Position numbers and translations under genes: made by a program | IMG/VR virus record: IMGVR_UViG_2531839301_000007 | Location: 1 to 64,000 of that record | Length of the DNA stretch: 64,000 bases | Strand: one strand, 5' to 3' | Source: a virus | Taxonomy: Duplodnaviria > Caudoviricetes | Notes under the pieces: generated by a model | Databases searched by the model: none | Seen by the model: the letters and a program-made list of their open reading frames with translations, nothing else | What the model was told of the DNA's origin: nothing | In this document: in pieces, positions 46,356 to 56,023 of the stretch | Numbering within the stretch: the first letter of the stretch is position 1 | How the letters are laid out: each line of letters opens with the position of its first letter

Positions 46356-47558
46356 ATGGAAAGTGTAAAGAAAAGAATTAGAAAAGATTTTCAACCATTG
46401 ACTATTGCGGTCAGCTTGAAAATTATGACTCCGAATAGCCCGACTTCGCAAGTATATAATAGCGAGAATGGCGAATATGAGCCTGACCGTGGCGTTACTC
46501 CGCTTGTGATTCTGCCGGAAGTTATTGCGAACTGTACGGATGGTAGCTGGAATACTCCTTATGCGAATGAGTTACTTTCCGAAATGAAGTGGTATATCAA
46601 CGGAAAAGAGGCTTCAACCGTAGCTTCTTGGAATGGAAAGTATTCTATTGATACTGTTGGTTCGACTCGCGGTGCAATTACGATCAACCGCAATGTTTCT
46701 CCGGGAGAAAGTTTTGAGCTTCATTTTGAAGGTGTAGTTGCTGATACCCGATTGGGTGCAAATATCCCAGTGAAGACAGATACTATAACTCTTTCTACCG
46801 TAGATAAAAGTGAAGATGAATACAGCTTATCAATCGGAGACGACCAAATCATCCGGTACAATCCATTTGAGGATGCTTTGCTACTGTATGATTATAAAGT
46901 TGCTAATGGTTTGACTACGGCTTCAACATCTGCACGCAATGCTGCGCTGAATGAAAACGCATACGAACGCTCTATTTCTGTATCCGTGCATAAAGGGGAC
47001 ACACTTTTAGCTGCTGGTTATACATTGAATTTATACAGCATTGGTAGTGGCGGTGTCTTGACACAACTTACAACTGCCAAACATGAGATAATCGCTTTGA
47101 CCTTAACGAAGATCACTATGGATTTGCGGCTAATAGAAAAAGGTGATTTTCTCTTGGTTGTCAATGTTGGTGGAAAAGAAAAAGCAAGAAAACAGTTTTC
47201 TATAAACCGGGTATATCCCAAATTTGATATAGAACCAGTAAGCGGAGTTTCCATTAATCCGGGTGAGACTACTCACTATAATAAAGTAATGGTGCATTAC
47301 AATGGAAATATAGTTCCGGTTCCCGCTCCAATTTTAAAGATGGTATGGTTTACTGATACAGAGAATTTAACCGGAGTACAACATAATGAGGGAACTGAAA
47401 CGGTGATAACATTATCTCGTACAGGAATTGGAAATACATATCTTGATGATTGGCTTGATATATACGTGGAAGCGGAACAGAAACCGATATTTAAAGTTAT
47501 GACTGATGCTTCGGGCACAGAATATACGGACAAAAGTGGAAATGTTTACATAAACTGA
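46356..47558 (+). CDS. Minor tail protein
   Basis: Beta-rich, 400 aa, in the tail operon. Confidence 0.6.
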   Translation: MESVKKRIRKDFQPLTIAVSLKIMTPNSPTSQVYNSENGEYEPDRGVTPLVILPEVIANCTDGSWNTPYANELLSEMKWYINGKEASTVASWNGKYSIDTVGSTRGAITINRNVSPGESFELHFEGVVADTRLGANIPVKTDTITLSTVDKSEDEYSLSIGDDQIIRYNPFEDALLLYDYKVANGLTTASTSARNAALNENAYERSISVSVHKGDTLLAAGYTLNLYSIGSGGVLTQLTTAKHEIIALTLTKITMDLRLIEKGDFLLVVNVGGKEKARKQFSINRVYPKFDIEPVSGVSINPGETTHYNKVMVHYNGNIVPVPAPILKMVWFTDTENLTGVQHNEGTETVITLSRTGIGNTYLDDWLDIYVEAEQKPIFKVMTDASGTEYTDKSGNVYIN

Positions 47559-47563
47559 TAATT

Positions 47564-47791
47564 ATGAGATATGTAGTAGCAAAAACCAAAACAGTCACTA
47601 ATGCTGGAATCAGTGATAGCGGACATAGAACAAAGAAAGGATTTATCATTATCAATGAAAAAGAGGTGATGAATAGTGATTTCCTCGAAGGTGATTTTGA
47701 AGCTCGTGTTCAAATACTTGGAGGTACAACATATACAAACGTGGAAATAAATAACATTATAAACGAAGGAGGATGGAATTATGGCTTATGA
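47564..47791 (+). CDS. Small tail-associated protein
   Basis: 75 aa, overlaps the next gene. Confidence 0.55.
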   Translation: MRYVVAKTKTVTNAGISDSGHRTKKGFIIINEKEVMNSDFLEGDFEARVQILGGTTYTNVEINNIINEGGWNYGL

Positions 47792-48803
47792 TTACAGTGC
47801 CCAAAATAGTATTACCATCAAGCGATTACGAGCGAATGATAGCTTGACACTTAGTTTTGATAATAACGGAATACCTCTGTTTCAGGGCGTAGATTCTGAA
47901 AGTGGAGTCGTATCGCCGGATTGGACGAAAGCAGCAAACCAACCGATAAGAACTCCGAAGGTTATTTCATCGCATGGGCTGGCAGTCGCATTGTCAAACC
48001 ATACTTGGACATACAATGGCGTGGCATTAAAATTTAGTGGTGCGGAAAGTAGCGGATGGAAGGCTGATAGCACCGGAAAGTTTCAAATGAACACTACTAC
48101 CGGAGCTATTAAGATTATTGCCAATTTAGCAAGTAAGACCAATATTGCCGGGGATACTCTTATTTATTCGTGTGTGGCTACGGTTGCCGGAGTAGAGTAT
48201 AACTTGACAAAGGATTTGCCTATCGTAATTCAAAACATAGGTGCAAGTTCATATTATCTTGCTATTCTCGCTACAACTGAACAGCTAACGAGTAAGGTTA
48301 CTTCAACTTCATTGCAGACAAAATTATATCTTGGAGCAAATGAGGCATCGGATTACTATGTGAAATGGTATAAAGACACGGCGGCATGGGCAGATAAAAA
48401 CGGTCAAAAAACTATTACTGTCGGAAGAGGTGATGTTGATGGTACTCAACTGTTCATTGCTGAAGTGTACAAGTCTTCCAGTGACTCACAGCCTTTGGCA
48501 CGTTCGGGTATCCGTATTATTGATACTGCGGATGAATTTCAGGTTGTGTGCTACATTTCTTCAGCCAATAAAGAGGTGGATACAGGTAGCCCGGTAACTG
48601 TTAGTGCAAAAATTGTCAATATGACTACCGGAGCGACATATTCCCCTTCGTCTGCCGCATGGACAATGAATATAATGGATAAGGAAAACTGGAAGAGTCT
48701 GAAATCTTCATCTACGAACAGCATATCAGTAACAACAACTGAAACAGATCGTAACGGGAATCTGTATGACGTAGATGTAGTTGCAGAATGTAACTTCAAT
48801 TAA
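47781..48803 (+). CDS. Minor tail protein (Ig-like, Thr/Ser-rich)
   Basis: 340 aa, beta-rich. Confidence 0.6.
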   Translation: MAYDYSAQNSITIKRLRANDSLTLSFDNNGIPLFQGVDSESGVVSPDWTKAANQPIRTPKVISSHGLAVALSNHTWTYNGVALKFSGAESSGWKADSTGKFQMNTTTGAIKIIANLASKTNIAGDTLIYSCVATVAGVEYNLTKDLPIVIQNIGASSYYLAILATTEQLTSKVTSTSLQTKLYLGANEASDYYVKWYKDTAAWADKNGQKTITVGRGDVDGTQLFIAEVYKSSSDSQPLARSGIRIIDTADEFQVVCYISSANKEVDTGSPVTVSAKIVNMTTGATYSPSSAAWTMNIMDKENWKSLKSSSTNSISVTTTETDRNGNLYDVDVVAECNFN

Positions 48804-48824
48804 TAATTAATCAAATACAAAATT

Positions 48825-50144
48825 ATGGCATCAAAAACTTTAGGAAGTGAAACCATAGTACAATCTATGCTAAGAAGCAATAGTGTACTCGTTGAGATTG
48901 ACGGAAACGTTCGCCGTATTTCATTGGAGAATCTGATGAACGCAATTAATACAGGTAATGAACAACTTCTGCGACAAGTCGCATGGGGTATCCCTTTAAA
49001 GCATAAAGTTCAGAGTAGTACTGCTTATGGAGTTGTAGGAAATACGGCTGCATGGGCTGAATACAAACGAATGAGTGGACGTTATCTCGTTAATAATGCG
49101 GGGAAAGCCTCAAAACTATCTCCGACTAATTCAGGAGTGTTTGCTGACGGTACTGCTCTTGACGAATCCAAAGGACATGTAATGTTCATTTCTCCGCGTT
49201 TATACTTTTTAGTTAAGACTGATAGTGTAAGCGGAATACCTTATTTATGGTTAAGCATGTATCCAATCGGTGGACATTATATTGGTGGAGCCAATGGTGG
49301 TGAATACAACTGTATTGGTGCGTATAAAGGTTCTATGTCAGGCAGTGCGCTTGTTTCCCGTTCCGGGGTATCTCCGGCAGGAAGTAAGACTATCAATGCC
49401 TTTTGGAGTGCAGCACAAGTGAATGGTAAAGACTGGGGACTGACTGACTACGATCAGCGTAAACTTATTATGATGCTTGGATTATCTGAATATGGAGATA
49501 CCAATATTCAAGCAAAACTGGGGTACGGTGTTAGTGGTAGCTCAAACTTGGATTTATGGGGGGCTGCGGCATCATTGAAAACCGGAGCTACCAAAAGTCT
49601 TGGTGATAACTGGGGAAAGATTGGCATTTCATTAGTGAATGGAAGCATTACGGGTGTGAATTGTTCACGTGTAAACATGATGGGTATTGAAGACCCTTAT
49701 GGATGGCAATGGGAAGATATACAAGGGGTATATTGTGGAAACTCTGCAAATGATACACAAGACGGAACCGAAATCTTTATCTATAAAGGCAACCGACTTC
49801 CAACTACTGCTGAAGTATCTACTCACCCTAACGGGGAATACCGACAAGCAACCCGTTTAACAACAAGTGGGTATGTACAGGAAATTATGGCTGGGGATAA
49901 CTTCGATATTTTCCCGGCAAAGATTGGCGGAGGAAGTACTTCATATTGGGCTGATTATTCATGGGCTAACAACACTGGGCAGCTTGTCTTTTGGGGCGGT
50001 AATGCGTCTTTCGGTGCGTACTGCGGCTTGGCGTATGCGTACTCGAATTACGCTTGGTCGCTCTCGTATGCGGATGTCGGCTCTCGCCTTGCTTATTATG
50101 GGAATTTAACATTTGTTACGGGTGCTGAATTGATGGCATCTTAA
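48825..50144 (+). CDS. DGR target protein; receptor-binding protein with C-terminal C-type lectin-like fold
   Basis: GIEDPYGWQWE, C-terminal WGGNA...VGSRL; contains the VR. Confidence 0.9.
   Translation: MASKTLGSETIVQSMLRSNSVLVEIDGNVRRISLENLMNAINTGNEQLLRQVAWGIPLKHKVQSSTAYGVVGNTAAWAEYKRMSGRYLVNNAGKASKLSPTNSGVFADGTALDESKGHVMFISPRLYFLVKTDSVSGIPYLWLSMYPIGGHYIGGANGGEYNCIGAYKGSMSGSALVSRSGVSPAGSKTINAFWSAAQVNGKDWGLTDYDQRKLIMMLGLSEYGDTNIQAKLGYGVSGSSNLDLWGAAASLKTGATKSLGDNWGKIGISLVNGSITGVNCSRVNMMGIEDPYGWQWEDIQGVYCGNSANDTQDGTEIFIYKGNRLPTTAEVSTHPNGEYRQATRLTTSGYVQEIMAGDNFDIFPAKIGGGSTSYWADYSWANNTGQLVFWGGNASFGAYCGLAYAYSNYAWSLSYADVGSRLAYYGNLTFVTGAELMAS
49981..50097 (+). repeat. DGR variable repeat (VR) with IMH
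   Basis: 117-nt match to TR; 13 mismatches, all opposite TR adenines. Confidence 0.97.
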
Positions 50145-50189
50145 CGAATTAATGAAACTTAGTTCTTTGAAATACAAATAGTTACAAAA

Positions 50190-50247
50190 TCCGTTCACAG
50201 CGTCACGTTCTCGAATTACGAATAGCGTGACGCACCCGACAGGGGTG
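50190..50247 (+). other. Hairpins 5' of TR
   Basis: GCGTCACG...CGTGACGC and CACCC-GACAG-GGGTG stems. Confidence 0.5.
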
Positions 50248-50270
50248 GACGGTTGGCGGAAGGGAACAAG

Positions 50271-50387
50271 AGCTTGTCTTTTGGGGCGGTAATGCGAATA
50301 ACGGTGCGAACTGCGGCTTGGCGTATGCGAACTCGAATAACGCTTGGTCGAACTCGAATGCGAATGTCGGCTCTCGCCATACTTATT
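50271..50387 (+). repeat. DGR template repeat (TR) with IMH*
   Basis: AAT/AAC-rich copy 290 nt downstream of VR. Confidence 0.97.
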
Positions 50388-50658
50388 TAATCGTGGAGAA
50401 ATCTGCGAGTTCCCTGAACCATGACCCTGCAATATTATGGTTGCAGCGTAGTAACCAGTAAGTTACGATGTCAAAAAAACACGTGCGGAAAGGTCTGTTC
50501 ATCTTGCGAAAACAGACAAGCGGCGTTAGTAGGTTTATTCTCGAAAGCTCCGGGCAAATTATTCAAGCAAGCAAAATGGACTTGCAATATCGGAATAATT
50601 GAAATAGGTCTGAAGAAGACAAAATTAAAAGTATGGTGTAAATTTTAAATAGAAGGTA

Positions 50659-52088
50659 ATGACTAAGAGAAGAGGATTTTTGATAGAACAGATTGCTGAT
50701 ATGGATAATCTTCGGGAAGCGGATAGAGATGCGCAGGATGGAAAGGTAAAGAAGAACCGATTTATCCGCCGTCACAACGAGCACGCCAAAGATGATTTAG
50801 AGGCTTTAAGGGAAATGATATTAACGCTGAACTTTCCTGACCCGAACTTCAGTATTATGACGGTTGTCAGTGATGCGGGGAAGAGAAGGGATATTGCAAA
50901 ACAAAGCTATTTCCCGTGGCGTATTCTCCACCATGCCATAATGAGGGTAATTGGGGAAGAGCTTTATAAGAGCCTCATTCTTGATACGAGTGCTTGTATA
51001 AAAGGAAAGGGATTGCATTTTGGAGTCAGGCGCATGAAGATGTTTCTACGTAGGTATCCTGAATATAAATGGTTTGTAAAGACCGATTTCAAAAAGTTCT
51101 ATCAGAGTATTCCACATGAAGTATTGCTTAATGCGCTTCGCCGGAAATTCAAAGACGAGAAGTTTATAAAGCTGATTGAGATTGCATTATTGAGTTATGA
51201 TAGCGGAGAAGAGTTAATTGAAATTTTGGAAAATGAAGAACTTCGGAAAAAGAGGTGTACCGATTGGAGCATACACAAGCCAACCACTCGGAAATTTCGC
51301 TGTAAGCCCGATAGACCACAAGTTCAAAGAACAGTATAAGGTCAAATGTTTGCATCGGTATTGTGATGATAACGTGATGCTTGCTCGGACAAAAGGTGAA
51401 GCTAAGTTCCTACTTCGGGAATATAACCGGGTAAGTGCAGAATATGGATTGGTTGTGAAAGGGAATAGTTGTATTTCTCCAATAGGAACGGAAGTTAGGC
51501 ATGAAAACAAAAAACATAGAAAGCGAAAAAGAAGTAAGAGGAAGAAGGATTAGCTTCTTGGGATATTGCTTTACACCGGACAATGTAAGGCTTCGTAAGA
51601 ACATGAAGAAAACCTTCGCGCGAAAAGATAAACGAATAAAGAGCCGTAAACGTAAGCAACAAATCCGTGCATCATACTGGGGATGGTGTAAATGGGGAGA
51701 TTGCCGAAATTTATGGAAAACAATAACAGATAATGATATGAGTTTTGCTGACAAAGGAATCAAACAAAGTGGAAAGACAAAGGACGGAAAGAAGTTCTTT
51801 GATGTTTCGGAAATGAGATTAATGGAAATTTTGAATATTCCCATTAAGGTATTGGATTTTGAAACAAACGTGAAGACTTCACAGGGAGACGGAAGGTATT
51901 GTGTACTGTTTGAAATGAATGGTGCAAAATACAAGTTCATAACAAATTGCTTTAACCTGAAAGATGTGCTCGATCAAGCAAGGCTACGGGAACAAGAAAC
52001 GGGCGATAAGATTTTCCCGGTGGAGAATGTGATTATTAAAAGACGTGCACTTCGTGAAGGAAAGAGTGCTTATTATTTTGATGAATAA
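50659..52088 (+). CDS. DGR reverse transcriptase split over three frames (50659-51339, 51233-51553, 51501-52088), with a fused 116-aa C-terminal domain
   Basis: Frame A: KTDFKKFYQSI; frame B: GVPIGAYTSQ and RYCDD; frame C: ISFLGY and ASYWGW thumb. Confidence 0.9.
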
Positions 52089-52105
52089 TTTAAAAGGAGG
52101 TAAAA

Positions 52106-52480
52106 ATGAAAGCGTACAGTGATTTTAATGGAGTGGTGCCCGAAGGTGTACAAGTTACAGTGGAAGGTAGTTTGGTGCGATTGTTCTTTGATTATGCCAA
52201 AAACGAAATTACCGTTGAAGGTGAAAAGCGTGAACAGTTGGTTTGTGAGAATGTAAATGCAAGCGGGAGAACGTATGAAGAGCTTGTCAGTGCTATTGTA
52301 ACTGACCGCTATTCGGCAGATAGACGTGAAGCCGTATTCGCCAATTATGAAGAAGCCAAAGATGAAACGAGTGAACTAACTGAAGTAAAACGCGCTGAAT
52401 ATTTAAAGGAATATTCTGATTTTCAGGCATGGCGTAAACGCGCAAAAGAAGTAGCAAATGAAGTATTAGCAAAATTGTAA
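52106..52480 (+). CDS. Phage hypothetical protein
   Basis: 124 aa, after the RT. Confidence 0.7.
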   Translation: MKAYSDFNGVVPEGVQVTVEGSLVRLFFDYAKNEITVEGEKREQLVCENVNASGRTYEELVSAIVTDRYSADRREAVFANYEEAKDETSELTEVKRAEYLKEYSDFQAWRKRAKEVANEVLAKL

Positions 52481-52484
52481 TAGA

Positions 52485-53804
52485 ATGAAGATACAAGGAC
52501 ATATAATAATAAGAAGAAAACCCAAAAACGGAGATAATGGGCAGGACGCGGTTCTCTATGAACTGATGCCAAGTGGACAAATTATCAATTTTTCCAATGA
52601 CAATGTGTTTTCTCCAAGTTTTGTCACTTGTTCTATTAAGAAGATACAAGGCAATAATCTTATTATGCTTACTACTGCATCCGCATTATCTACCGAAGGA
52701 CTTCGATTAAGTTATGCTATGGATGATGGTTCTGATGGTGACACAGTTATCAATCCTACCACTAAAGTATATCCGAATGATAAAATATCATATATAAATT
52801 TTACTCTTAAAAAGAATGAAGCAATAATAGATAAGAAGACTATTCAAATATGCAATGATGGTAAAGATGGAGAGAAGGGAGAAGACGGATTACAGGGGTG
52901 CATCCTTCGGCAATCTGAATGGGCATCTGGCGTAGAGTATCGCAATGACGAGGCTCTTATTTCCGGTACTCGGTACTTGGATATTGCCATTGTAACAACT
53001 GGTGCTAATACTTTCAACGCTTATAAATGCTTGAAGACACATGTTTCCAGTTCTTCTATTCCGGTTACTAACACAACATATTGGCAGAAGTTTAATACTC
53101 TTCAGCCTGTTTATACTCCATTAATTATGGCTCAAAATGCTATTCTTCGGTTTATGCAGGGGAATCAGCTTTTGATTATGAAGCCTGATGGAAAAACTAT
53201 TGTAGCAGGACTCGTTGGTGGAGACATACCATTTTGGGTCGGAGGGGAAACGCCTAATAATGCTTCTGTGTATTTCGGAATGGCGGGTAACGGGCAGTTA
53301 GCGCATGGAAATATCAGTTGGAATGAAGCTGGTGATTTGACTTGTGAAAGAGGTATTTTTAAAGTGGGTATAAAAAAAATATATCGTAAAGTTAGTTTAG
53401 ATAAATATACTTCAGAATCTTTCAAAGCAGACCTTACAACTGGGTTGAATTTTGTTTTTACCAAAAATACAGGAAACGATACACATTATATGACTTTGCC
53501 AACTTCCACTGATTTAGATGGATTCGATTCTGAAATGATATTTTATGGTAATCCGGGAGCAGTAATGATTAGTGGAGAAAATGGTACATATCCTTTTATG
53601 TACAATGGCATGAGAGTAAAACAAATTAAAATAGGCTCTTTTCCTCGGCGTTTGCATTTAAGTGCGAGAATAAGTAATGATATTGGAGGGTCTAATAGGA
53701 TTGAATGGTGGATTGTAAATACTTCAGATTTTACTTTACAAGGAAAAATTTCAAGTAGTGGGTATTATAATTATGTAGAATCACAATATTACAATTCATT
53801 GTAA
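52485..53804 (+). CDS. Tail fibre-like protein
   Basis: Short collagen-like GKDGEKGEDGLQG; WASGVEYRND repeat-type motif. Confidence 0.65.
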   Translation: MKIQGHIIIRRKPKNGDNGQDAVLYELMPSGQIINFSNDNVFSPSFVTCSIKKIQGNNLIMLTTASALSTEGLRLSYAMDDGSDGDTVINPTTKVYPNDKISYINFTLKKNEAIIDKKTIQICNDGKDGEKGEDGLQGCILRQSEWASGVEYRNDEALISGTRYLDIAIVTTGANTFNAYKCLKTHVSSSSIPVTNTTYWQKFNTLQPVYTPLIMAQNAILRFMQGNQLLIMKPDGKTIVAGLVGGDIPFWVGGETPNNASVYFGMAGNGQLAHGNISWNEAGDLTCERGIFKVGIKKIYRKVSLDKYTSESFKADLTTGLNFVFTKNTGNDTHYMTLPTSTDLDGFDSEMIFYGNPGAVMISGENGTYPFMYNGMRVKQIKIGSFPRRLHLSARISNDIGGSNRIEWWIVNTSDFTLQGKISSSGYYNYVESQYYNSL

Positions 53805-53833
53805 ATAATATTATACACAAACACAGGATAACA

Positions 53834-54319
53834 ATGAAAGAATTGAATGAATTATTTGTAATTGCATGGATGCTATTTGGCATCTACATGCTTGTATTAT
53901 TGCTGATCGGGGCAGATTTATGGAGTGGATACAGAAAAGCTAAACAAAGAGGTGAAGCAAGAACGAGTTATATGCTTAGAAAAACCGTTGATAAAATCGC
54001 ACGGTACTATAACGCATTATTGGCTTTGACCTTCGTTGATTGTATGCAGATGGGGGGAATTTGGTTTTTGGACAACTATTATGATTGGCATATCCCGATT
54101 TTCCCGTTAGTAACATTGTTGGGTGCAATCGCTTTCGGTGCCATAGAAGTCAAAAGCATTTATGAAAAGGCAGAAGATAAAATGAAGGACGACTATCGAC
54201 AAGTAGCCATACTTGCTGCTGAAATAGCAAAGCATAAAAACGAGCCTGACAAGATGATACATGCAGTTGATGATTTTATGAATAAAAATAACAAAGGAAA
54301 TAAGGAGGAACAGAAATGA
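53834..54319 (+). CDS. Holin
   Basis: TMs; ADLWSG.RKAK.RGE...LRKTVDK motif; precedes the lysin. Confidence 0.8.
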   Translation: MKELNELFVIAWMLFGIYMLVLLLIGADLWSGYRKAKQRGEARTSYMLRKTVDKIARYYNALLALTFVDCMQMGGIWFLDNYYDWHIPIFPLVTLLGAIAFGAIEVKSIYEKAEDKMKDDYRQVAILAAEIAKHKNEPDKMIHAVDDFMNKNNKGNKEEQK

Positions 54320-54732
54320 CACGAGGACTACGAAATAACAATCCATTGAATATTAGGAAGAATAGCACAAAATGGCAGGGCTTATCTGCAACACAAACAG
54401 ATAAGAGCTTCTTTCAATTCACGTCTATGGCATACGGATACCGGGCTGCTTTTAAGACTCTCCAAACATACATCTTGAACAAGTATGATACTGATAAAGA
54501 TGGAGTGTCAAACGAACTTGAAGATGTCATAATGAGATGGGCACCGCCATGTGAGAATAATACAGAATCGTATATTTCCACAGTAGAACGGCGTTCAGGG
54601 GTATCCCGACATACTGTTTTACGTAGAGACAATAAAGAACAGCTTATTGCGATAGTTTCTGCTATGAGCTATGTTGAGAATGGCGTTCCGGCTAATATGG
54701 AAGACGTTAGGAAAGGATGGGAATTGATATAA
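54316..54732 (+). CDS. Endolysin, lysozyme-like
   Basis: RGLRNNNPLNIR, YGYRA, RWAPPCENNTESY. Confidence 0.72.
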   Translation: MTRGLRNNNPLNIRKNSTKWQGLSATQTDKSFFQFTSMAYGYRAAFKTLQTYILNKYDTDKDGVSNELEDVIMRWAPPCENNTESYISTVERRSGVSRHTVLRRDNKEQLIAIVSAMSYVENGVPANMEDVRKGWELI

Positions 54733-54755
54733 TAACTATCATAAAACAGAACTGT

Positions 54756-55457
54756 ATGATAAGTCTAAATTTTATTCAAGTGGAAGACGGGTGGTTTGAG
54801 AGCCAGCCGATTCAGGTGTCGGGGAACATTGCTATTAACCTGACTTTTGATGATACAAATGACAACCGGGTAGTACTACTGAAAAGTTCTACCGGGCATA
54901 GTTATGTGTCGTTTAAGGAGAATCTTAATGTTGGTTCTTGTTGTGATATGAATGAGAATTATCTAATTCCCGGTCAATATATCAAAGTGCGAGTTAATAA
55001 ACTTCCGGCAACATCATCTTTGTTGGAAGACCTACAAGGGAGCTTCGCAAGTAAGCAAGATTTGTTTGTTGAAAGTGGAAGGGCACAGACAGAGGAATCA
55101 AAACTGGAACAGTCTATCAATAGTGTGAAGCAAGCATTAGATACGCTGGTTAAAGGTGTAGATGCGACTACGGCTATTGATACATTTAAGGAGATTGAGG
55201 ATTTCTTGGCAGGAGTAACGAATGAGAAGACCTTAACCGGGATGCTTGCTGCCGTTGATGGAAAGGCTGGCACTGCGCAAACGACTGCCGACTCTGCAAA
55301 GAAAACGGCGTCTTCTGCTTTGGCAAAAGCAACTGAAAACGGAACAAAACTTGCTACTATTCCTGACATGCCAGCCAATGACGGGAAAATATATGGATTC
55401 TGTAATGGTGCATGGATAGTGATAGCTGAAAGTGGTAAATCTGTATATACAACATAA
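54756..55457 (+). CDS. Phage structural/hypothetical protein
   Basis: AIDTFKEIEDFL fibre-type motif. Confidence 0.55.
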   Translation: MISLNFIQVEDGWFESQPIQVSGNIAINLTFDDTNDNRVVLLKSSTGHSYVSFKENLNVGSCCDMNENYLIPGQYIKVRVNKLPATSSLLEDLQGSFASKQDLFVESGRAQTEESKLEQSINSVKQALDTLVKGVDATTAIDTFKEIEDFLAGVTNEKTLTGMLAAVDGKAGTAQTTADSAKKTASSALAKATENGTKLATIPDMPANDGKIYGFCNGAWIVIAESGKSVYTT

Positions 55458-55459
55458 CA

Positions 55460-56023
55460 ATGAAAAGCAAATTACCAATAGGAATAGTGATAGCGGTATT
55501 GATTGCCGCTATCATTTGCCTCTCCAATTTATTGAAGAAGGAGCGTATTGAAAGTAAACGTCAGTCCGGGAATGTTGAGGCACTGTTTTCAGAGTTGAAA
55601 ACTTATAAGGTGAGGGATAGCCTCAACGTGGCTGAAAGTAAACAGCTTCGCTTGACTATCGAAGAACTGAAGGAGTATCGTGAAGCTGATGCAAAATTGA
55701 TTAAGGAGTTGAAATTAAAGCCATCACAGGTAGAGTATATAGCTCACACGAAAGTGGTAACAAAAGATAGTATTGTCTTTGTGCTGAAAGATAGCTGCTT
55801 CAATTATGCGGATAGGTGGGCGGAGTTTAACGGTTGCATCAGGTCTGATACAGTAGATTTTAACTATCAGACATCAGATAGTCTTTCTACCGTAGTGAAT
55901 CGGGAATATAAACATCATTTCTTATGGTTCCGGTGGGGTACAAAGGGGTATCGGATGAAAATAGTGAACCATAATCCACGATCACGGATAACATACAATG
56001 AATTTATAAAGATTGAGAAGTAG
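55460..56023 (+). CDS. Spanin-like protein
   Basis: N-terminal TM plus coiled coil at the end of the lysis cassette. Confidence 0.55.
   Translation: MKSKLPIGIVIAVLIAAIICLSNLLKKERIESKRQSGNVEALFSELKTYKVRDSLNVAESKQLRLTIEELKEYREADAKLIKELKLKPSQVEYIAHTKVVTKDSIVFVLKDSCFNYADRWAEFNGCIRSDTVDFNYQTSDSLSTVVNREYKHHFLWFRWGTKGYRMKIVNHNPRSRITYNEFIKIEK

Follow-up and report, generated by a model that had tools for sequence, protein, structure and literature searches.

A hypermutation reverse transcriptase of a gut Bacteroides prophage spans three reading frames and may be made as three separately initiated polypeptides

The reverse transcriptase (RT) considered here belongs to a diversity-generating retroelement (DGR) in a stretch of 64,000 nucleotides (the window; positions 1 to 64,000 of the IMG/VR record IMGVR_UViG_2531839301_000007, Caudoviricetes) that derives from a gut Bacteroides prophage of the Quimbyvirus/LoVEphage type. 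The motifs of this hypermutation enzyme are distributed over three open reading frames (ORFs), each displaced by +1 from the last, and from the comparison of the locus with its relatives we favour, with about an even chance of being right, the production of the RT as three polypeptides with separate starts. The three-frame arrangement is not new, having been known since 2021, when it was described for Quimbyvirus and two programmed frameshifts were suggested (Benler et al. 2021, Microbiome 9:78, PMC8008677); our literature search found no paper besides PMC8008677 that treats the mechanism by which such an RT is produced. The features on which the argument draws are, in window coordinates:

50659..51339, plus strand: ORF A, frame 1, RT N-terminus and motifs 1-3 (ORF list, Pfam)
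51218/51233-51553, plus strand: ORF B, frame 2, RT motifs 4-6 with YCDD, followed by a basic tail (ORF list, Pfam)
51501..52088, plus strand: ORF C, frame 3, RT motif 7, thumb and an extra C-terminal domain of ~116 aa (ORF list)
51205-07, 51245-47, 51485-87 and 51540-42, plus strand: GGA codons (sequence)
51208..51244, plus strand: insert 1, 37 nt, read in frame A as an acidic helix and then a basic residue (alignments and the ratio of nonsynonymous to synonymous polymorphism, pN/pS)
51488..51539, plus strand: insert 2, 52 nt, read in frame B as a polybasic peptide (alignments, pN/pS)
51233..51235, plus strand: new-frame ATG of frame B, 4 codons before the conserved KRGVPIG (sequence, relatives)
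51501..51503, plus strand: new-frame ATG of frame C, 13 codons before the conserved GRRISFLGY (sequence, relatives)
51247..51250, plus strand: hand-over window of junction 1, within an A5 run at 51247-51 (frame constraint in relatives)
51536..51542, plus strand: hand-over of junction 2, AAG A GGA (frame constraint in relatives)
51509-14, plus strand: A6 run (sequence)

The initial annotation of the window had placed the RT motifs in three successive +1 frames, and all of its coordinates proved correct when re-checked. In the numbering adopted here, RT motifs 3 and 4 are separated by junction 1 and motifs 6 and 7 by junction 2, and the order of the motifs agrees with the earlier statement that both breaks lie between conserved blocks. 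ORF A and ORF B both matched the Pfam family RVT_1, and motif 4 (PIGAYTSQ, of the DGR type I/LGxxxSQ) as well as the catalytic YCDD are located within ORF B. The conserved part of ORF A stops at ~51249, the remainder being an unconstrained out-of-frame tail that closes at a TGA forced by the YCDD codons of ORF B, while ORF C continues past the thumb into the conserved extra domain (51738-52085), which is without a Pfam match. All three RT frames are under purifying selection as judged from pN/pS.

Both gaps between the frames contain an ATG in the new frame, as had been noticed before (51233 and 51501), and these ATGs carry most of the argument for separate starts. At junction 1 the ATG is kept in 32 of the 33 distinct lineages, 2-6 codons upstream of the conserved downstream region, and at junction 2 in 34 of 35 (9-17 codons upstream); retention extends to the deepest relatives having each junction, and the two lineages without ATG have TTG (L043) and GTG (L195) instead. 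The frame is always open from the new-frame ATG to the conserved region, but the absence of stops there, as in the upstream frame before the junction, is uninformative, since such purine-rich stretches almost never form stops. More telling is the codon of the upstream frame that overlaps the ATG, which is always NAT, both at junction 1 (N in 12 lineages, D in 18, Y in 2) and at junction 2 (CAT, AAT, GAT or TAT; H in 5, N in 13, D in 4, Y in 12). NAC never occurs at either of these codons, and Glu was found only in L043, one of the lineages without ATG. Because the overlapping residue varies among NAT codons only, whereas other conserved NAY codons in the same genes end in T in 43-88% of cases, the pattern points to selection on the ATGs at the level of the nucleotides A-T-G. 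The start context of the junction 2 ATG is typical for this phage (score 7.3 vs. a median of 6.1 for phage gene starts, 58th percentile).

Three separate chains are favoured because the ATGs are kept with a NAT-only overlap, because neither a conserved slippery site nor a conserved structure was found at the junctions, and because the start context at junction 2 is typical, the DGR has retained its activity and the same phage has a second gene, of the radical-SAM type, split in two ORFs, the latter with its own ATG. Translation of ORF A from 50659 would then give the N-terminal region and motifs 1-3, ending in a conserved acidic helix. ORF B would be initiated at the ATG at 51233 and comprise motifs 4-6 with YCDD, ending in a conserved polybasic tail, and ORF C, initiated at the ATG at 51501, would add motif 7, the thumb and the extra C-terminal domain; the three chains would presumably assemble into one active enzyme. 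A split RT made of three chains by reinitiation was among the alternatives listed in the initial annotation, and of these the split fits best, with reinitiation as a possible route to it.

Several observations weigh against separate chains. The breaks lie inside the interleaved fingers/palm fold and not between domains, and the start context of the junction 1 ATG is marginal (13th percentile of the true starts of the phage). At both junctions the constraint on the upstream frame runs almost to the start of the downstream frame, exactly as a frameshift predicts, and ORF A would end in an unconstrained tail of ~10-50 residues, selection for an early stop not being evident there. Gain and loss of the inserts is coupled to the change of frame (L057-59, L193, L060), which also fits an insert that promotes recoding, and the existence of variants with joined frames (P0001, L193) means that a continuous chain can at least arise. 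Split archaeal PolB and the overlapping phage ORFs of phiX174, where gene E lies inside gene D, are the nearest precedents: in these, enzyme pieces come from separate ORFs, or a downstream ORF starts at an ATG within the upstream ORF in the +1 frame, but the breaks considered here differ in being inside the fingers/palm fold. We are not aware of an RT described as consisting of three chains, and a three-subunit RT, if true, would be unprecedented for this class of enzymes.

The radical-SAM gene (RlmN/Cfr-like, 260 aa) lies outside the window on the minus strand (genome 69050-70060, L062:9050-10060). It ends at a stop, and its missing C-terminal segment (39 aa, with GAACGQL near the end) is encoded 20 nt further downstream by an ORF of its own, which lies in another frame and begins with ATG. 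Next to it there is a tRNA-like element (L062:9005-9084) that scores 20 bits to tRNA-Sec, below threshold. The tRNA-Met of the phage (window 26745-26819), the first in an array of six tRNAs, has initiator-like features: its 1:72 pair is mismatched, and its anticodon stem has three G-C pairs at the base.

A complete DGR is present within the window, with the target gene and its first variable repeat (VR1) followed by the template repeat (TR) and then by the three RT ORFs:

48825..50144, plus strand: DGR target gene, tail-fibre-like, 439 aa (ORF list)
49981-50097, plus strand: VR1, inside the target gene (alignment to TR)
50271..50387, plus strand: TR (alignment to the VRs)

VR1 and TR differ at 13 of 117 positions, and all 13 are TR adenines. 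A second VR, located beyond the window (genome position 65931-66047, minus strand), has 18 mismatches to TR, 14 of them at TR adenines. A copy that is near-identical over 6.9 kb departs from the window only at 13 VR1 positions at TR adenines and by one 1-nt indel in an A run. Judged by the adenine-specific differences between VR1 and TR, the DGR is active.

The RT shares with that of the Bordetella phage BPP-1 (bRT, PDB 8ub7 series) the DGR-type motif 4 (I/LGxxxSQ) and YxDD, together with adenine-specific mutagenesis from TR to VR, and a natural fusion of ORFs A and B matched the Bordetella DGR RT with an E value of 1.8e-13 (PDB 8ub7). It differs from bRT, which is a single ORF and in the alignment has no acidic insert between motifs 3 and 4. 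A further difference may be that bRT works with Avd: no avd-sized ORF is present among the ORFs listed for 47000-56000, where no dedicated profile search for avd was made.

The closest described systems are Quimbyvirus (PMC8008677) and LoVEphage (MW660583, PMC8525569), which belong to the same group, as each has ~95% nucleotide identity to the B. dorei CP011531.1 prophage (PMC8008677, PMC8525569). Like the element in the window, they are temperate Bacteroides phages of about 70-78 kb with a tRNA array, an RT in three overlapping frames and two VRs, one in the tail gene and a distal one near methyltransferases and RtcB, and the VR variation of Quimbyvirus was shown to be adenine-specific (PMC8008677). 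The window represents a sister lineage and not the same species: ORF A is 76% identical to the copies in LoVEphage and in the cultured phages BI-TP1 and PV4-TP1, in whose records the RT is annotated as fragments only. The earlier description of Quimbyvirus did not include a site analysis, nor did it describe the conserved ATGs, the coding status of the inserts or natural fused variants (PMC8008677). Among inducible temperate phages of the human gut, those of this type rank with the most prevalent (PMC12629997), and their DGR rewrites the tail protein as well as a second, defence-linked protein. Some LoVEphage-clade copies (L006, L046, L064, P0002-P0005) have an ORF A with an N-terminal extension of ~45 aa (MNIGRNDIDW...), which is absent in the window.

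The layout is neither a sequencing error nor the product of decay, and it is conserved in more than 150 related loci, among which are cultured Bacteroides isolates as well as inducible phages. Contigs from four public runs (2011, 2018, 2022 and 2024; sources include chicken gut and mouse gut) span positions 50600-52100 (1501 bases) with 0 mismatches and 0 gaps, and the inserts, for which a check against indel artefacts had been proposed, are thus unchanged in four independent runs. A 66.7-kb contig from an RNA-labelled run (X4) was also identical to the DNA, but it probably reflects DNA carry-over and is uninformative on transcripts. Of 60 viral-contig relatives in IMG/VR, 55 keep the layout, and the succession A-B-C with +1 steps between the frames extends to relatives with 50% protein identity. 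The layout also occurs in isolates (B. acidifaciens DSM 15896, B. intestinalis AF14-32, B. oleiciplenus YIT 12058, Bacteroides sp. GD17) and metagenome-assembled genomes (MAGs), with 14 genome contigs showing it, as do most of the 80 metagenome loci compared. A near-identity DNA search of the phage collection gave no match, and relatives were found when the same collection was searched in protein mode. The lengths of the gaps between frames vary (28-40 nt at junction 1 and 37-61 nt at junction 2) but are always 3n+1. Farther away, at ~43% identity, L057-59 have A and B in one frame without insert 1 and with junction 2 retained, and L060 (37% identity) is a single ORF from which both inserts are absent. 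The breaks and the +1 offsets are therefore shared by distant relatives of an active DGR, in line with the earlier view of a conserved functional arrangement as opposed to a one-off decay.

The inserts are translated, evolving as coding sequence of the upstream frame, according to the alignments: pN/pS is lowest in that frame (0.44-0.53 overall vs. 0.76-1.5 in the downstream frame) and the peptides are conserved. Insert 1 has the frame A consensus QEIIDxLDDE followed by a basic residue whose codon swaps between CGG, CGT, CGA, CGC and AAR (pN/pS 0.47 in frame A), and insert 2 has the frame B consensus GKKKxRKRQRG, with swaps between AGR and CGN codons for Arg (pN/pS 0.46 in frame B vs. 1.28 in frame C). 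At junction 1 the constraint on frame A reaches the Arg/Lys codon 51244-46 (CGG here) and that on frame B begins at the Arg codon 51251-53 (AGA here; AGA, CGC, CGA or CGT in relatives), so that the hand-over between frames is confined to 51247-50. At junction 2, frame B constraint reaches codon 51536-38 and frame C constraint begins at Gly 51540-42, for which all four GGN codons are used in relatives.

Forms in which two of the frames are joined occur in nature. The A5 run at 51247-51 has lost one base (A4; position 51247) in copies from a single metagenome sample (ERZ28633889, SRR14076545), so that A and B are fused in frame with insert 1 retained; these copies (L199:3001-3894 and L200:351-1244) are near-identical to the window over 6.9 kb, and their junction reads ...EELRK-RGVPIG.... 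A search for fused proteins with in-frame inserts recovered a single genuine A-B fusion (P0001), the four other hits being aberrant forms with deletions. In L193 (CZCB01016632.1) junction 1 is retained and B and C are in one frame, with an unrelated 24-nt loop (YLSEGNIV) in place of the polybasic insert; this relative seems to have reverted secondarily from within the split clade. For the fused A-B variant AlphaFold gives a confident RT fold (pLDDT 81), the basic tail being disordered and insert 1 forming a short helix of low confidence; the model does not separate a split enzyme from a frameshifted one. Because fused forms do arise, a 1-nt deletion being enough to join A and B in the lineage of the window, and the three-frame layout nevertheless persists, the layout itself suggests selection, plausibly to limit or time a mutagenic enzyme.

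The main alternative to separate initiation, which we consider possible but less probable, is that two programmed +1 frameshifts, at ~51247-50 (Lys AAA-A) and 51536-42 (AAG-A-GGA), yield one polypeptide of ~470 aa, as proposed in PMC8008677. It accounts directly for the unbroken hand-over of constraint at both junctions, for gap lengths that are always 3n+1, for the insert that always accompanies its frame change, and for the A5-to-A4 variant, whose junction is precisely the one that a shift is predicted to produce. AAA or AAG followed by a purine is found at junction 1 in most lineages. At junction 2 the overlapping zero-frame codon is always NGG (AGG in 20 lineages, GGG in 8, CGG in 7, never TGG), AGG and GGG being the rarest Arg and Gly codons of this phage, and it overlaps a Gly codon in the +1 frame, most often GGA, the commonest Gly codon in the phage.

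Of the parts of a shift-prone site, the slow zero-frame codon is seen at junction 2 (NGG), but a conserved P-site codon able to re-pair is not, and no conserved slippery site was found. No conserved nucleotide motif was seen at the junctions in the alignments of relatives, and the +1 sites put forward initially, CTT-C (51241) and the A6 run (51509-14), are not conserved. The junction 2 codon before the skipped base varies (AAG, GGT, AAA, CGC, GGC, AGC, AAT, CGT, CAT and CAG), and most of these P-site codons (e.g., GGT, CGC, CAT, AAT) cannot re-pair in the +1 frame; at junction 1, L072 and L077 are without an A run or Lys codon at the hand-over. Folding gave no conserved RNA structure (mean z 0.17 across junction 1 and -0.08 across junction 2, ~-0.9 downstream), and neither a Shine-Dalgarno (SD)-like nor a structural stimulator was found by folding or in the alignments. 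Six phage tRNAs were predicted with confidence (Met, Phe, Asn, Trp, Gln and Ser), low-threshold ARAGORN output being noise, and within this array of six no tRNA for Lys, Arg or Gly and none with an enlarged anticodon loop was found. If two inefficient events had to follow one another, hardly any full-length enzyme would be made, and frameshifting also leaves unexplained why the new-frame ATGs should be retained at both junctions under apparent nucleotide-level selection.

Known programmed +1 sites include those of prfB (CUU-UGA), Ty1 (CUU-AGG-C) and Ty3 (GCG-AGU-U). The junctions resemble them in the +1 change and, at junction 2, in the rare Arg codon (AGG or CGG) of the zero frame that overlaps the +1 Gly codon; they differ in that a conserved heptamer, a stop at the site and an SD-like or structural stimulator are all absent, and in that two sites would occur in one gene, each keeping a new-frame ATG. 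In the frameshift account the acidic and polybasic inserts and the rare NGG codons would be unconventional stimulators that keep the level of the mutagenic RT low. That this amounts to a new kind of +1 recoding without a slippery site, set by the nascent peptides of the inserts together with rare NGG codons and used twice to dose the enzyme, is in our judgement rather improbable; two motif-less +1 frameshifts would, if true, represent a new recoding signal.

A mixed scheme, in which B and C (or only C, acting as an accessory protein in a DGR without Avd) are made as free chains from the internal ATGs and an occasional +1 shift gives fused forms, would explain jointly why the ATGs are conserved and why constraint passes from frame to frame without interruption, and the extra domain of ORF C together with the missing avd-sized ORF near the RT (among the ORFs listed, no dedicated search having been made) would suit it. 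It is less parsimonious and nothing specific favours it, which makes it unlikely. Correction at the RNA level, whether the RNA polymerase slips on A runs or the inserts are excised from the transcript, is very improbable: A5 and A6 runs do lie near the junctions in the window, and in L016, an old metagenome contig, the run that precedes the ATG of junction 2 is longer by two A (A8 vs. A6 in relatives), but the A runs are not conserved, several lineages having A3 or none at the hand-over, and the inserts are under protein-level selection and hence not removed.

We give equally little credence to a decaying or inactive RT gene. Some copies are plainly damaged, e.g., L004 and L034 (IMG/VR 3300045988), where an 11-nt deletion in the YCDD box introduces a third frame change and has probably inactivated the gene, and several low-coverage contigs have extra frameshifts. 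Against decay stand both junctions, shared by lineages that diverge by more than 50% in protein sequence, the purifying selection in all three frames, the 13 of 13 VR1/TR mismatches at TR adenines, and the 6.9-kb near-identical copies, which diverge only in the A-run indel and at the VR1 positions noted above.

The first proposal for this locus, a double translational bypass of the T4 gene 60 type with untranslated gaps between matched GGA codons, is refuted by the comparative data. In T4 gene 60 the bypassed gap is 50 nt, and the gaps of 37 and 52 nt resemble it in length; joining GGA to GGA does leave seamless motifs in the window, as had been claimed, and the matched codons flank a stretch of ~40-50 nt as they do in gene 60. 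The likeness is limited to this window and its near relatives. Homologues keep the breaks without the matched codons: more than 20 different pairs of end codons occur at junction 1 and 19 at junction 2 (e.g., GAG/GTA, GGC/GTA, AAA/AGA, GCA/GGA and CAA/GGA), with GGA/GGA in near relatives only, and the GGA-N-AGTTA-N-TGAAA string common to both gaps and the complementarity between the ends of gap 1, both real in the window, are not conserved in relatives either. Bypass is thus rejected because the GGA pairs are unconserved, because the inserts are coding, as seen from the purifying selection on them as upstream-frame protein, including the AGR/CGN swaps for Arg, and because, in further contrast to gene 60, no conserved take-off hairpin is present and no in-frame stop follows either take-off codon, a point already conceded in the initial annotation and borne out here (20-63 open codons follow in frame A and at least 16 in frame B).

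Extra indels were seen in L016, L125, L161 and L184 and in ~15 low-coverage metagenome loci, mostly in the A runs of insert 2 or scattered across ORF C; these are likely assembly or sequencing errors or defective copies, and a background rate of contig-level frameshifts exists. Two distant DGR RTs, from a Pacearchaeota MAG (L085) and a Nanoarchaeota MAG (L087), each have a break at a poly-G run immediately upstream of motif 4 (+1 in one, -1 in the other); these breaks are unrelated to the junctions of the Quimbyvirus type and may reflect homopolymer length variation or error. Several proteins in the databases are internal-deletion forms of the RT.

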